Positions 19,849 to 27,619 of a stretch of 42,929 nucleotides of DNA are shown here, one piece after another (position 1 is the first letter of the stretch; every line of letters starts with the position of its first letter). The notes beneath the pieces are model-generated. The model was not told the origin of the DNA. It worked only from the letters and a program-made list of their open reading frames with translations, and did not search any database. The translations under genes and the position numbers were made by a program. The DNA is from a virus: IMG/VR virus record IMGVR_UViG_3300045988_057118; one strand, written 5' to 3'.

Positions 19849-20733
19849 ATGGCAGAATGGTCAAATGCAACCATGACTGATATCGGTGCTGATCTTCAAG
19901 CGAAGGTAAATGCAGGCAAAACTAAATTGACATTCACTAAAATCAAAGTCGGTAGTGGCGTTAATGCAACGAATCCATTGGCACTAACTGATGTAATCTC
20001 CTCTAAATGGGAGACTACTAATTTTGTAGTTAAACAAGAAGGTAAAATCGTAAGCGTTGATACGTTTATTACAAATAACGGCATAAAAGAGGCATTTAGA
20101 ATGTCAGAAATTGGGTTATTTGCCAATGATCCAGATAAAGGAGAAATATTGTATGCATACCTAACAGATCCTGAACCTGATAGAATGCCGGCAGAAGGGG
20201 GTGCGGTTGTTGTATCTCAAGAGCTAACTATCGGAATGATGTTTAGTAACACTGGCAATGTATCACTCACAGTTAATATGGGGGCGCTAGTTAATCAGGA
20301 ACAACTTAAAGAGCATAACTCATCTACTTCATCTCACTCTCCTATAACAGACCAAATCAAAGCAATCCTTGGAAGTGCAAATTGGAAAGACACTCCTGCT
20401 AGTACACTTGTTACAATTAAAAATTTGTTGGGCCAAGGTGCTATAGTAGCATCTAAACTTGATGCTAGCGCAGGCTTTGTTAAATTTGCAAATGGTTTCA
20501 CTATCCAGTGGGGAATAGGCGGCCAAGATAATGTAACTAAGACAGAAGTGCGATTCCCTATCAAATTTACAACTTTATTCATGGCGAACGCTATTGATGC
20601 GTACTGGTCGGGCTCAGATACCCCTAGGTATTTTGCCAACTCCGTGACTGAGAGCGACACCACTAAGGCCGTATTTTCGGCAAGTGATAGATATGCTGCT
20701 TCTTATTACTGGTTCGCTCTAGGAAAAATTTAA
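19849..20733 (+). CDS. Tail fibre protein; constant N-terminal about 222 aa fused to invertible C-terminal cassette C0
   Basis: 294 aa after the gpI-like gene. Its C-terminal 72 aa begins at a ccagtggggaata site that recurs inverted twice downstream in front of homologous alternative C-termini. Confidence 0.7.
   Translation: MAEWSNATMTDIGADLQAKVNAGKTKLTFTKIKVGSGVNATNPLALTDVISSKWETTNFVVKQEGKIVSVDTFITNNGIKEAFRMSEIGLFANDPDKGEILYAYLTDPEPDRMPAEGGAVVVSQELTIGMMFSNTGNVSLTVNMGALVNQEQLKEHNSSTSSHSPITDQIKAILGSANWKDTPASTLVTIKNLLGQGAIVASKLDASAGFVKFANGFTIQWGIGGQDNVTKTEVRFPIKFTTLFMANAIDAYWSGSDTPRYFANSVTESDTTKAVFSASDRYAASYYWFALGKI
20503..20520 (+). repeat. Recombination site S0 (ctatCCAGTGGGGAATAgg) inside the tail fibre gene
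   Basis: 13-bp core ccagtggggaata is identical to the inverted copy at 21193-21205. Imperfect palindromic arms flank a 3-bp agt spacer; encodes TIQWGIG in frame. Confidence 0.7.
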
Positions 20734-20981
20734 TTACCTATAATCAGAAACATAATCTGGTCACCAACACCTTGCTGCCCTCTATAATCACTATCCTTGT
20801 ACGTCAACTGATTTCTAGATGTCGATAAAATGATTTCAGAAAATGAATAATCACCGTTATATCTTGTTGCAGAAACGGCGATAGTTTTATTACTGAACTC
20901 TATCGGATATCGCACAGTCCATGGCTTTGGTTGATTATTAGCATTAAATAATACCCACTGGGTATTAAGATAATCCGACGG
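20730..20981 (-). other. Silent alternative tail-fibre C-terminal cassette C2 (promoterless, inverted)
   Basis: Open frame on the minus strand beginning at inverted site SB (LNTQWVLFN ...). Its product aligns with the expressed C-terminus (VRYPIEFSN vs VRFPIKFTT; AVSATRYNGDYSF vs AVFSASDRYAASYYWF). Confidence 0.65.
20951..20966 (-). repeat. Recombination site SB (ataCCCACTGGGtat), inverted relative to S0
   Basis: Perfect palindromic arms ataccc/gggtat around act; shares ccagtggg with S0; encodes NTQWVL in the same phase as S0 (TIQWGI). Confidence 0.6.
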
Positions 20982-21231
20982 CTATCCACACAAAACTTCC
21001 AGTATCTGCTCTGTTAGTTAAGAATCTGATTGCGGTTCTATTAGATTGAGAAAATCCACTGTTCCACGAAATAAAGCATTCCGATCCAGAAGTCGCAACA
21101 CTGACAGAGTCGTCGGTGGCTAAGGATACCAGAACAGTACTGTTAATCGGTAGCGAAATATCTTTGTAGTACCTATTGGAATCAAACCAGGATATTCCCC
21201 ACTGGGGAGTTACTTTAATAATTCTATTGTT
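20965..21231 (-). other. Silent alternative tail-fibre C-terminal cassette C1 (promoterless, inverted)
   Basis: Open frame on the minus strand beginning at inverted site SA (VTPQWGISWFDSNRYYKDISLPINSTV ... FVWIAVGLS), homologous in length and pattern to C0 and C2; its stop overlaps site SB. Confidence 0.65.
21191..21208 (-). repeat. Recombination site SA (tattCCCCACTGGggagt), inverted copy of S0, 5 bp from the recombinase stop codon
   Basis: Reverse complement contains ccagtggggaata, identical over 13 bp to S0; encodes TPQWGI in phase with S0. Confidence 0.7.
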
Positions 21232-22061
21232 TTACGTAGTTCCCGAATGGTTTTGTGCGTGTATACCCTGGTAGTGATATCGCCTTGTTTATGACCTAAC
21301 AATGCGCGTAACGTGTTAGGCGGCGCAATCGCATCAAGTAGACTTGCAAATGTGTGCCGGGTATCGTGGATAGTATGCTTGCAGTTAAGTTGTTTCATAA
21401 TATCATGGAAATGCTTGCGAAATGATGTGTAGCTGATAGTGAATAGATAATTGTCTGTATCGTTGTATAATTGCTCAATTAATGGCATGATGCGGTGATG
21501 GATGGGAATGATACGCCCTTCACCAGCTTTTGTTTTAGCGTGTCTCACAATAAGGTATAATGATCGTCTATTGATATCTTGCCTACGTAAGTTAAGTAGC
21601 TCGCCGATACGGAGCCCGGTGTAGAGCAACATTAAAATCATTTGGGAATAAGAATTATCTATCGCCCATAATTTGTTGATTTGTTGGCGAGTGAATACTC
21701 TTCTTTTAATCATTGGTATATTGGGCCCTAGATTTAAGTGTGAGGCGTAATTAGTGATAGGGTAATCTTGGATGATTGCGTAATTAAATAATTGATTAAG
21801 TAACGTGCGGACTTTCTTACATGATGAGTAAGAAAGTCCTTTTACGTGCATGGAATTAATCACATTTTGAAGGTGCTGAAAATGAATATCCGTGATAGGC
21901 ATATCCGCTATGTTGGATATGTGTTTAAAAGCAATATGGTAAGACTTAACGACACTCTTAGTAATAGCTTGTGAGTGAATAGGCAACCACTCGTTAAATA
22001 GTTGCCTTAATGTAATGGTATTGCGTTGTCTACGTTTTAGTATAACGGCGTAACGGCGCAT
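21210..22061 (-). CDS. Tyrosine site-specific recombinase (Rci/shufflon-type invertase candidate)
   Basis: 283 aa with catalytic motifs TGLRIGEL (Arg), HDTRHTFAS (H-x-x-R), LGH, and TRVYTH (Tyr). RBS GGAGGTG; located directly adjacent to the invertible tail-fibre segment. Confidence 0.8.
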   Translation of the reverse strand: MRRYAVILKRRQRNTITLRQLFNEWLPIHSQAITKSVVKSYHIAFKHISNIADMPITDIHFQHLQNVINSMHVKGLSYSSCKKVRTLLNQLFNYAIIQDYPITNYASHLNLGPNIPMIKRRVFTRQQINKLWAIDNSYSQMILMLLYTGLRIGELLNLRRQDINRRSLYLIVRHAKTKAGEGRIIPIHHRIMPLIEQLYNDTDNYLFTISYTSFRKHFHDIMKQLNCKHTIHDTRHTFASLLDAIAPPNTLRALLGHKQGDITTRVYTHKTIRELRKTIELLK

Positions 22062-23572: not shown

Positions 23573-24148
23573 ATGTTTAGACAAATTACAATGGACGAGT
23601 TAAAAGACCTAGCGCTAGATGCCTATGGCCAAATTGAAAAGGCGTACTATCATTGGACAGGGGTAAAAGGTGGTAAGCACTTCACAGATTACCATATCAA
23701 CATCGACCGAGCAGGTACAATGTGGACCGATATAGAGACCTTAACCGATTATAAGGAACACACCTATATGCGCAATAGTAACGCTGTAGGCATTGCCATT
23801 GAAGCGTGTTGGGATGCAGTCAGTGAAAATAACCTAGGTAGTGAACCACCAACAAAAGAACAGTTGGCCACTATGACACAAATTATGGCGGTGCTTACTA
23901 TTAATGCAGGTGTGCCACTTGACCTACAACATCAGATGACGCACGCCGAAGCAGCAGATAATCGGGACGGCTTGGACCTCTATTATTTAGATCCGACGGG
24001 CTATCCAAATAATACGTACGGCCCAGACTCCAACGTTGACCGATGGGACCTCTTGGTGTGCCATGAGGGCGACGAACGATGGAGTGGTGGTGACTGGTTA
24101 CGTGGCACCGCTCGATGGTGGGGTGCTCAGTGGGGTAGTACAATTTAG
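23573..24148 (+). CDS. Endolysin, N-acetylmuramoyl-L-alanine amidase (Amidase_2 / PGRP fold)
   Basis: 191 aa with an Amidase_2-like pattern (YHWTGVKGGKHFTDYHINIDRAGT ... GIAIE ... MTHAEAAD). Confidence 0.8.
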   Translation: MFRQITMDELKDLALDAYGQIEKAYYHWTGVKGGKHFTDYHINIDRAGTMWTDIETLTDYKEHTYMRNSNAVGIAIEACWDAVSENNLGSEPPTKEQLATMTQIMAVLTINAGVPLDLQHQMTHAEAADNRDGLDLYYLDPTGYPNNTYGPDSNVDRWDLLVCHEGDERWSGGDWLRGTARWWGAQWGSTI

Positions 24149-24160
24149 GAAGGAGTTACC

Positions 24161-24622
24161 ATGTATGAAACTATCAAGAACAAAGTTATATCTGCGTTTA
24201 CTCTTAAGCGTGTTATTTGTGGTGTGCTTAGCATTATTTCCATCTATTTCGCATGCAGCCTCATCGGAGGGTACCTCGACACAAGAGCCGACTATCAGCG
24301 TACCCGTGAGAAGTTGGAACGAACTCAAAGGGCGCTTGATGAAAGCAGAAAGCTCAATCAACAACTCCGAGAAAGCATTGCAGCAAGCCAACAGCTTAAC
24401 CGCGACGCAGGGAACAGCATTAACAGAATTGAAGATTATCAACGAAGAACGGACGAAGGAATTGAACGCGCTCAAAGCAATCAACGAGAAACAGGGGCAA
24501 GAATTAACGAAAGCCTCCAATCTCTTGACAACGCAAGAAGCGAAATTGAACGAAGCCTCGACCTCATTAGAAGAATTGACAGAACAAATCAAACGCAACA
24601 AACGAACCGAACAGCGCCTTAA
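24161..24622 (+). CDS. Alternative overlapping ORF, i-spanin-like (N-terminal TM plus charged periplasmic domain)
   Basis: 153 aa, ATG 7 nt after AGGAAGGAG. Uses rare ctc/cga codons, so it may be a compositional artefact of the T-depleted segment. Confidence 0.3.
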   Translation: MYETIKNKVISAFTLKRVICGVLSIISIYFACSLIGGYLDTRADYQRTREKLERTQRALDESRKLNQQLRESIAASQQLNRDAGNSINRIEDYQRRTDEGIERAQSNQRETGARINESLQSLDNARSEIERSLDLIRRIDRTNQTQQTNRTAP

Positions 24623-24689
24623 ACGGCAACGTGACACATGGGCCGTGGTAAGCGGTGTATTTGGATTGGCAGGTGCAATTCGTCGATGA
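24165..24689 (+). CDS. Spanin-like periplasmic coiled-coil protein (N-terminal signal peptide, C-terminal TM anchor)
   Basis: Frame +1 relative to 24161; host-like codon usage (tta/ttg Leu); clear heptad coiled coil. N-terminal signal MKLSRTKLYLRLLLSVLFVVCLALFPSISHA, C-terminal WAVVSGVFGLAGAI. Confidence 0.4.
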   Translation: MKLSRTKLYLRLLLSVLFVVCLALFPSISHAASSEGTSTQEPTISVPVRSWNELKGRLMKAESSINNSEKALQQANSLTATQGTALTELKIINEERTKELNALKAINEKQGQELTKASNLLTTQEAKLNEASTSLEELTEQIKRNKRTEQRLKRQRDTWAVVSGVFGLAGAIRR

Positions 24690-24750
24690 CTGAGAGGTGA
24701 TCCATACATCTCCTGAGCATGAACAGGTGGACTCATGGATTGACTATATA

Positions 24751-26633: not shown

Positions 26634-26662
26634 GCCCTCACTGCGGTGAGGGCTTATTTTTA
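26634..26662 (+). terminator. Intrinsic terminator-like hairpin between int and the abi gene
   Basis: gccctcac tgcg gtgagggc hairpin followed by ttattttta. Confidence 0.45.
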
Positions 26663-27619
26663 TGTAATTATCTTCTTGGTATTTGAGTGCCAATCAATAG
26701 GAAATCCTAATTTTATTAAGATATCATTTATACGAATAGATTCGAGCTTTGGAGCCAATTTTTTCACTAACTTTAGTACCGAGTTATGTAGTGTGGCATA
26801 TTCGATGCGGCTTAAAAAACATTGTAGTGAAAGAAAAACAGTGTAGGGAGTGTTTCTTGGGGTATTTGACGTAATGCAATATTTAGAGTGTAATGGCGCC
26901 CAATAGCGATCATCTGCGGGGCAATGGTGCCCGATTAATCTATTACTGTGCGCGCAAACGTTTCTGATGTCGTGCATGTTTTTTACAAAGCTTATCATTG
27001 TAGCCGGAGGAAATTGCCCCGGATTTTGAATATGTTCTGAAATAAAGCTTATGCAATCACGAGCTACTTTGTTTTGTACAGAAGTCGTTGAATTAGTTAA
27101 TAAATATCGAAATGCTCCAAATTCAATATAGCTAGATAATACCCAAATGGGTACTTTCTTATATTTATTTATGTAGTGATAAATACTGGAGTCTTTATAG
27201 CGTTTACAATTATATCTTGTAAGTATTTTAGATAGTTTAGATATAGTCTCTATACTCTCTAGGCGCTTAGTGGAATCGTAACAATTTATATCTAAATAAG
27301 GGTAAGGGTCGTTTGGGAATGTCTCGGAAAATCTATGAACAAACAACGCTTTTAAGTGTGTTTCTGCGCTAAGAATGGCATTTAGTAGTTCTTGCTTAAG
27401 CTCCTTTTCGAATCGATATAGTTTAGCAATTTCATCAAAGTTAGTATTAGCGGTGTAATTATCATTGTTATCGTGTGGAAAAAAATTAGCATAGCCGTTA
27501 ATAATATTGTAATAGTTTTGACTTAACAAATATGCTTTTGCCTTATCAATATCATTAATGACAAGCTTTCGTCCAAGAAGTATTTGAATTTGCTCATCTA
27601 TCGTTTTAAATTCTTTCAA
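26660..27619 (-). CDS. Abortive-infection protein, Abi_2 family (AbiD/AbiF-like)
   Basis: 319 aa; N-terminal EQIQILLGRKLVIND ... YYNIINGY and a conserved IRNVCAHSNRLIG motif typical of Abi_2 proteins. Confidence 0.7.
   Translation of the reverse strand: MKEFKTIDEQIQILLGRKLVINDIDKAKAYLLSQNYYNIINGYANFFPHDNNDNYTANTNFDEIAKLYRFEKELKQELLNAILSAETHLKALFVHRFSETFPNDPYPYLDINCYDSTKRLESIETISKLSKILTRYNCKRYKDSSIYHYINKYKKVPIWVLSSYIEFGAFRYLLTNSTTSVQNKVARDCISFISEHIQNPGQFPPATMISFVKNMHDIRNVCAHSNRLIGHHCPADDRYWAPLHSKYCITSNTPRNTPYTVFLSLQCFLSRIEYATLHNSVLKLVKKLAPKLESIRINDILIKLGFPIDWHSNTKKIIT

Follow-up and report, generated by a model that had tools for sequence, protein, structure and literature searches.

The stretch of DNA analysed here (IMG/VR virus record IMGVR_UViG_3300045988_057118; 42,929 nucleotides [nt], called the window below) is the ~43-kb genome of a temperate phage with a contractile tail. 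The end of its tail-fibre gene is followed by silent cassettes headed by short inverted sites and by the gene for a tyrosine recombinase of 283 amino acids (aa). Very probably, this locus is an active multiple-inversion shufflon by which a prophage of Veillonella parvula and Veillonella dispar exchanges the tips of its tail fibre. In near-identical genomes, one constant fibre N-terminus is joined in frame to any of four alternative C-termini, and the arrangements seen all belong to the set that inversion between the sites permits.

Natural arrangements of the locus

The loci compared were drawn from a recombinase scan of IMG/VR (80 loci) and from species-representative genomes (8 loci); where every segment matches that of the window with full identity, the segments occur in many orders and orientations. 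In a full locus, the sites number four and the segments three. One segment is double-headed (C0> <C2), with cassettes C0 and C2 standing tail to tail and always occurring together, in either orientation; the other two, C1 and C3, are single-headed. Cassette C3 (QWGRDNYDSDERSHWVTFPISF...LWLAVGKA, then stop; 235 nt) is not in the window but occurs in many relatives otherwise 100% identical to it; it was found by mapping the window’s segments onto relatives, and in full-length loci it sits between the left half of site SA and C1 (for the features of the window, see Table 1). Four left halves can be distinguished (the end of the constant part, the tail of C1, the tail of C3, and the end of the recombinase gene), as can four heads (C0, C1, C2, and C3), all of which are seen joined to the constant part. 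The identical 221 N-terminal residues occur fused to C0, C1, C2, or C3 both as exact-match proteins of public assemblies and in loci L001-L013 and L094-L111, with C3 in frame behind them in L002, L005, L008, and L010. In public assemblies, the exact fusion proteins N-C0, N-C1, N-C2, and N-C3 are found on 132, 74, 74, and 120 contigs, respectively, about 400 altogether. The places examined for these fusions cover many independent samples, chromosome-size Veillonella contigs, and two contig-naming styles; N-C1 and N-C3 have no sample in common among the 18 places shown.

A first-pass annotation, made from the letters of the window, had proposed an in-frame swap of the fibre C-terminus among several cassettes beside a dedicated tyrosine recombinase. 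The natural isoforms back this proposal, and each fusion that it predicted exists as an exact protein in public assemblies. Its count of three cassettes is right for the window, but the natural full locus has four and the lineage about seven cassette families (at ≥60% identity, i.e. at least 60%); the ‘three host-range states’ read from that count are not supported either.

When inversion between oppositely oriented sites was simulated on the full locus, exactly 12 arrangements were reachable, and in every one of them the constant part was followed in frame by a single cassette; exchange between direct sites could delete single-headed segments and never the double-headed one. Natural arrangements were counted in the window and 33 loci with an identical N-terminus (and flanks nearly identical where aligned). 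Nine of the 12 full-length arrangements allowed and all four of the C3-less ones were seen, giving 13 distinct arrangements among near-identical genomes, and no arrangement among these loci fell outside what is allowed. In 87 loci, head-to-head joining was found at 0 of 231 junctions. The flanks of the 18 aligned loci differ at 29 positions in 2.77 kb, and two loci (L011 and L096) have the single-nucleotide polymorphism (SNP) haplotype of L013 over these 2.77 kb, yet differ from it in arrangement. Other lineages carry two, three, or four sites. The two-site form, which is that of the complete genome CP019721 (L083), consists of a single double-headed segment and is the sole configuration that cannot be deleted.

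Table 1. Features of the tail-fibre locus and lysogeny module in the window
Feature	Position	Strand	Remarks
Tail-fibre gene, N-C0 isoform, 294 aa	19849..20733	+	Baseplate J and Tail_P2_I genes just upstream
Constant fibre part, residues 1-221, ending ..FANGFTIQW	19849..20511	+	Identical across C0, C1, C2, and C3 fusions
Site S0 (TAT-CCAGTGG-GGA)	20502-20514	+	Reads TATCCAGTGGGGA; inside the expressed gene; core over the Q220-W221 codons
Cassette C0 (QWGIGGQDN...WFALGKI, stop)	20506..20733	+	Expressed form in the window
Cassette C2 (..NTQWVLFNANN...MFLIIGN, stop)	20730..20960	-	Open frame from 20960 to 20730, silent here
Site SB (TAC-CCAGTGG-GTA)	20952-20964	-	Reverse complement TACCCAGTGGGTA; between C2 head and C1 tail
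Cassette C1 (..TPQWGISWFDS...VWIAVGLS, stop)	20965..21204	-	Open frame from 21204 to 20965, silent here; single-headed segment
Site SA (TCC-CCAGTGG-GGA)	21196-21208	-	Reverse complement TCCCCAGTGGGGA; between C1 head and end of recombinase gene
Tyrosine recombinase, 283 aa	21210..22061	-	Pfam Phage_integrase (E=4e-20) and SAM-like core-binding domain
Tyrosine integrase, 393 aa	25457..26641	-	Lysogeny module, beside the Abi and cI-like genes
Abi_2 (abortive-infection-like) gene	26660-27619		Directly adjoins the integrase gene; Pfam E=2e-35

Recombination sites

Counting both strands, the window has just three copies of the 7-mer CCAGTGG, at 20505 (+), 20955 (-), and 21199 (-). The 8-mer CCAGTGGG is likewise present three times, always at the fibre locus, against a mean chance expectation of 0.39 (0 of 100 dinucleotide-preserving shuffles reached three copies). 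A repeat search returned the inverted pairs I2 (18 nt, 89%) and I6 (16 nt, 81%). The three sites of the first-pass annotation are thus all present, with its coordinates 1-2 nt off. All three cores overlie the codons CAG TGG (Q-W) that head open frames of 74-79 codons, and the two minus-strand frames it had described are indeed open and in phase through CAG TGG.

Everywhere, a junction consists of a left half, the common CCAGTGGG, and a cassette head; the left half of S0 (..TTTCACTAT) is joined to all four cassette heads across loci that are 100% identical. The consensus of 224 aligned junctions is T-M-Y-CCAGTGG-G-G-A, with an invariant T at position -3 and A in 77% at position +3. The conserved site is a 13-bp near-palindrome, of which the central G:C pair alone is asymmetric. 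C1, C3, and the recombinase gene all have their stop codons within the left halves, 3-4 nt before the core (3 nt before the SB core for C1). All partners have just CCAGTGGG in common, which confines strand exchange to these 8 bp; a 7-bp overlap, CCAGTGG, would be a symmetric guess at the crossover.

Cassettes and the fibre tip

The expressed fibre matches the Pfam families Phage_tail_fib at its N-terminus (residues 6-147) and Gp53-like_C at its C-terminus (residues 212-292, E=2e-9), as well as a tail-fibre PHROG (E=3e-38). Fused to the constant lead, the alternative cassettes match Gp53-like_C (PF21882) too, with E-values of 2e-9 for C0, 3e-7 for C2, and 1e-9 for C3, and three further cassette families do so at 8e-12 to 8e-7; in all, six of the seven families pass, their alignments spanning profile positions 1-83/84. 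A cassette profile also matches the C-terminal tip domain (residues 84-163) of PDB 4MTM, an AP22-type tail fibre (E=1e-4). From these Pfam and PDB profile matches, it follows that the tips are swapped at the conserved Q-W-G motif of the domain, within its first strand. The homologous peptide blocks that the first-pass annotation had listed in the order C0/C1/C2 actually stand in the order C0/C2/C1.

Complete cassettes are intact in 211 of 217 cases and encode 74-81 aa. The ratio of nonsynonymous to synonymous polymorphism (pN/pS) is 0.14 for C0 (45 variants), 0.12 for C2, and 0.31 for C1, and lies at 0.12-0.31 in the five families with enough variants, despite ~70% of the copies being silent where they were found. 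The cassettes are therefore functional coding sequences under purifying selection and not the decayed pseudo-cassettes that had been considered as an alternative.

A few cassettes deviate. In L012 and L014, which have different backbones, C3 is frameshifted by the loss of one G from the GGGG run at the boundary of core and head, so that the head reads CCAGTGGGACGCG in place of CCAGTGGGGACGCG; imprecise recombination, slippage, or sequencing error could each account for this. In L009, C2 has an in-frame deletion of 27 nt that removes IEFSNKTIA. The locus is 27 nt shorter also in L106 and L108, from independent samples, and this length suggests that both share the C2 deletion of L009.

The recombinase

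The adjacent gene encodes a tyrosine recombinase, as had been proposed from its R/HxxR/Y motifs: the Pfam match is accompanied by the catalytic residues R151, H232-x-x-R235, H257, and Y267 in an alignment against Rci. It gave a Phage_integrase match and none to any resolvase family, and the only recombinases among the open reading frames (ORFs) scanned around the locus were tyrosine recombinases, with no serine recombinase. Pfam shows the protein to consist of core-binding and catalytic domains only, with no arm-binding domain. It is 24% identical to the phage’s own 393-aa integrase in an alignment that begins at integrase residue 86, i.e. it lacks the first ~85 residues of the latter.

In every one of the 88 related loci, which span 85-100% sequence divergence, the gene lies next to the cassettes, and its ORF is intact in 87 of them. 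The remaining locus, L088 of a Veillonella metagenome-assembled genome (L088:4049-4453), has lost nucleotides 283-727 of the recombinase gene and kept its four sites and its cassettes; it may be a naturally locked variant. To judge from its conserved position, the 283-aa protein is the presumed invertase. The first-pass annotation had allowed that it might be an integrase with an attachment site of its own, but a separate canonical integrase is encoded in the lysogeny module. Two positional details given there need correction: the fibre gene and the recombinase gene converge rather than diverge, and the stop codon of the latter, which had been put 5 bp from site A, stands at a distance of 1 nt from the 13-bp site, or 4 nt if measured to the 7-bp core.

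The description of the enzyme as ‘Rci-type’ does not hold either. Its identity to R64 Rci (NC_005014) is 24% over 252 aa, the same as to the phage’s own integrase, and it is without the C-terminal extension of Rci; we therefore reject membership in the Rci family and see a relationship at superfamily level only. A tblastn search of 72,556 plasmids with the recombinase gave 389 matching records, nine of them from Escherichia, and no IncI-type shufflon recombinase was among 40 sampled rows of these matches. In the corresponding search of phages, Bifidobacterium was not among the ten most frequent genera, beside which there were 28 further genera. A clade-wide link of such recombinases to fibre genes was rejected as well: the closest deposited relatives, of the Fusobacterium phages phiHugo and JD-Fnp2 and the Butyrivibrio phage Arawn, are ordinary integrases in lysogeny modules.

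A scan for promoters and terminators gave nothing above background. Inside the recombinase coding region, antisense to it, an inverted repeat with perfect 12-bp arms and a loop of 7 nt is followed by TTTT (21809-21839, +). It looks like a terminator for transcripts leaving the fibre gene and the cassettes, in which case the downstream lysis genes would need a promoter of their own. The starts of the recombinase gene (22061, -) and of the next late-region gene (22088, +) diverge and are only 26 bp apart, so that both promoters must lie inside neighbouring coding sequence; weak sigma-70-like matches are present on the minus strand at 22272-22245 and 22198-22169.

Contig ends and the missing cassette

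Twenty-two contigs stop inside the locus, and for eight of them the end comes no more than 14 nt after a core. Four stop precisely at ..CCAGTGGGGA, the final base that the heads of C0, C1, and C3 have in common, which is where the assembly graph of mixed junctions would branch; these ends are indirect evidence of mixtures within samples. Since the 8-13-bp repeats are shorter than assembler k-mers, each junction present in a contig must have been spanned by reads.

In the window, the junction of the recombinase end with the C1 head (21196-21212) is the exact product expected of a deletion of C3 between direct sites, as comparison with a C3-containing locus shows (L013:4111-4367), and the same junction also occurs in full-length isoforms such as L005. 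The window could thus have lost C3 by direct-site deletion, or the assembler could have walked a chimeric path through a mixed population. Contigs without C3 are frequent (six of 10 N-C1 places examined), and SNP haplotypes do not separate C3-less from full-length loci.

One assembly is evidently chimeric. L077:5585-8886 resembles a palindrome (recombinase, cassette, C0/C2, cassette, inverted recombinase) with halves only 83% identical, and is a chimera in which two strains were joined via the C0/C2 segment common to them but present in opposite orientations; L042 and L077, both from metagenome 3300007123, represent three different strains.

Proposed mechanism and alternative explanations

In the mechanism that we propose, the constant part (residues 1-221) ends in the first strand of the gp53-like tip, and the remaining ~75 tip residues are supplied by the cassette joined at the site. 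The adjacent recombinase would exchange strands in the core common to inverted sites. With left halves always rejoining cassette heads, the 12 arrangements would be reached, one cassette being in frame in each, and recombination between direct sites could remove single-headed segments only.

Several points weigh against this reading. The nearest relatives of the recombinase in deposited phages are ordinary integrases (31-35% identity), and what assigns catalysis to it, rather than to the 393-aa integrase or a host enzyme, is conserved adjacency. Conservation extends over only 13 bp per site, which is short for the core site of a tyrosine recombinase and leaves the binding arms ill defined. Cassette C1 stays below the Pfam threshold (E=0.034), though it aligns over the whole Gp53-like_C profile. 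The coexistence of isoforms within one clone is deduced from contig ends and identical haplotypes, and an effect of tip switching on host range, through tips that would differ in receptor or host specificity, is likewise what we infer.

We consider it improbable that the inversions are real but catalysed in trans by the 393-aa integrase or a host recombinase, the 283-aa protein being a second integrase or a resolvase. The best matches of this protein are indeed phage integrases, and trans-acting invertases are known (e.g. Mpi of B. fragilis, cited in PMC6109161). Its gene, however, ends 1 nt from a site and adjoins the array at every locus; the protein lacks the N-terminal extension of the integrase, as Rin is described to do (PMC6109161); and the phage has no further copy of the core that could serve as an attachment site.

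That the arrangements are fixed strain polymorphisms, inherited from old rearrangements at a locus that no longer switches, appears very unlikely: 13 of them are spread over just 29 flank differences, identical haplotypes differ in arrangement, the recombinase ORF is intact at all loci but one, and contigs break at the very base where heads part, a break that calls for mixed junctions in a single sample. This explanation could nonetheless call on L088, where the recombinase has a large internal deletion and four sites are kept, on CP019721, where only the two-site form is found, and on the fact that all the evidence is a comparison of assemblies. We give hardly any credence to the idea that the isoforms are assembly artefacts arising from the repeated sites. 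Artefacts do happen at the locus, as the chimeric L077 contig shows, and the absence of C3 from the window could be a chimeric path, since the junction in question also exists in full-length isoforms such as L005. The common core of 8-13 bp is, however, far below assembler k-mer and read lengths, so that real reads must span the junctions; the same set of junctions recurs in many samples and in both contig-naming styles; and all junctions join a left half to a cassette head, unlike random misjoins. An active shufflon remains by far the best explanation of the locus.

Possible cassette exchange between genomes

The sites may have a further role, which we put forward tentatively and regard as doubtful: that they are ports for the exchange of cassettes between genomes, with single-headed cassettes lost by self-deletion, in an integron-like platform whose polarity comes from one central base pair. 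Cassette blocks ~100% identical are found in backbones whose flanks are 84-93% identical, with the breakpoints in identity within 10-14 nt of the cores (L003 versus L016; L082 versus L018). Sharp transitions in identity occur at the cores in 37 of 955 site pairs, compared with 20 and 12 at control positions 100 nt away, i.e. they are 2-3 times commoner at the cores. The presence of two, three, or four sites per locus and the deletability of single-headed segments alone fit such a platform. Homologous recombination anchored in the conserved FANGFTIQWG stretch could, however, give a similar pattern. Were the exchange reading true, an evolvable cassette platform would be common to a very prevalent lineage of human-associated Veillonella phages.

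Comparison with known inversion systems

Gin/Hin-family serine invertases need an enhancer and Fis, and the invertible segments of Mu and P1 also carry a chaperone gene. In contrast to these segments, the Veillonella cassettes are only ~230 nt long and come with no chaperone gene. Like the Veillonella locus, the systems of Gin (Mu), Cin (P1), Min (p15B), and the Enterobacter phage FR-phi exchange a fibre C-terminus by DNA inversion, and Min and FR-phi, the latter a gin-dependent shufflon (PMC13418256), are also multi-cassette; all of them use serine recombinases, whereas the enzyme here is a tyrosine recombinase.

The shufflon of R64/ColIb-P9 (Rci, sfx, PilV) resembles the Veillonella locus in its multiple inversions, the terminal position of its tyrosine-recombinase gene in the array, a mixture of double- and single-headed segments, and a constant N-terminus with switchable C-termini on an adhesin that selects target cells. 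The adhesin there is PilV of the thin pilus, whereas here it is a tail fibre (Phage_tail_fib, Gp53-like_C); the site differs from sfx; and Rci, with 384 aa against 283 aa, is 24% identical and thus no closer than any integrase.

The closest parallel is Rin of Bifidobacterium breve and Bifidobacterium longum prophages, described in 2018 as the first phage-encoded invertase of the tyrosine family, with constant and variable parts of a receptor-binding protein, 11-bp sites, and a recombinase without an arm-binding domain (Mavrich et al. 2018; PMC6109161); Rin is also found in prophages of Eggerthella lenta (PMC8778435). Both systems have, beside the array, a phage-encoded tyrosine recombinase of XerD-like size without an arm-binding domain, and this is a different protein from the lambda-like integrase of the prophage. 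Both have a constant receptor-binding-protein N-terminus followed by several promoterless C-terminal cassettes, each headed by a short repeat, and in both the isoforms were seen by genome comparison; how deletion between direct sites is limited is a question common to the two. Three features of a Rin-type architecture are found in the Veillonella locus, namely a recombinase separate from the integrase, at least two in-frame promoterless cassettes headed by one and the same short site, and alternative arrangements in otherwise identical genomes; the likeness is one of architecture as described. Rin differs in its Actinobacteria hosts (here a diderm Firmicute of the Negativicutes), its siphovirus TP901-1-like receptor-binding protein (here a contractile baseplate-J/P2-I tail with a gp53-like tip), its site rix, an asymmetric 11-bp repeat TTCCCTAACCC (here a 13-bp near-palindrome inside Q-W-G codons), and its cassettes of 95-100 aa (here ~75 aa); the Veillonella locus, in addition, has a double-headed segment.

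BV01-like phages of Phocaeicola vulgatus, described in a 2026 preprint, offer a further parallel: these temperate gut phages have a recombinase-flanked, multi-cassette shufflon over the distal end of a tail-fibre gene, all configurations of which are found in natural populations (PMC13596623). They have a 10-bp motif TGGGAGAACT and three non-homologous cassettes giving six variants, as opposed to the homologous gp53-like tips here. Phage tail genes also figure among the programmed-inversion targets of a systematic survey (PMC9881135).

The first-pass annotation had called the system unusual, but phage receptor-binding-protein shufflons run by tyrosine recombinases were already published (PMC6109161; PMC8778435), as was a recombinase-flanked tail-fibre shufflon (PMC13596623). 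Literature searches on Veillonella phages, shufflons, and invertons yielded no description of the Veillonella system, and a paper on Negativicutes prophages makes no mention of inversion. The Veillonella system adds an example to a kind known since 2018 and does not found one of its own. The evidence for it from nature is unusually complete, and its distinctive details are a site within a conserved domain motif, a near-palindromic core, the restriction of deletion to single-headed segments, and hints that cassettes pass between genomes.

Phage genome and host

The contractile tail is evident from Pfam and PHROG matches to tail sheath, tape measure, baseplate J, and Tail_P2_I genes in the window. 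The lysogeny module comprises the 393-aa integrase, a cI-like repressor, and the Abi_2 gene, which probably serves the prophage in defence. Just past the amidase gene, gene content is ambiguous, with three long overlapping ORFs (24036..24689, +; 24098..24736, -; 24161..24622, +).

Judging from related sequences, the host is Veillonella parvula, Veillonella dispar, and related Veillonella; the host-informative relatives include chromosome-size Veillonella contigs and one complete genome. A megablast search of the nucleotide sequence against deposited phages gave zero matches, and the N-terminus of the fibre is only 25-32% identical to Firmicute phage fibres; the phage is therefore one without an annotated reference.

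Implications

Veillonella belongs to the core genera of the human mouth and gut; to our knowledge, almost none of its phages have been characterised. The prophage lineage described here is common, judged from the ~400 public contigs with exact isoforms, and it is highly likely that alternative tips, of which a full locus has four and the window three, are part of the phage genome and that the phage cycles through them. For host prediction from metagenomes, this means that an annotated fibre is one state of the locus, and for assembly quality, that contigs break or lose cassettes there; the finding also bears on the isolation and engineering of Veillonella phages.

The locus extends tyrosine-recombinase fibre shufflons from prophages of Actinobacteria to diderm Firmicutes and to phages with contractile tails, the earlier range possibly including Phocaeicola phages. 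It is also a compact system, with a 283-aa enzyme and a 13-bp site, the whole state space of which can be enumerated and has largely been seen in nature.

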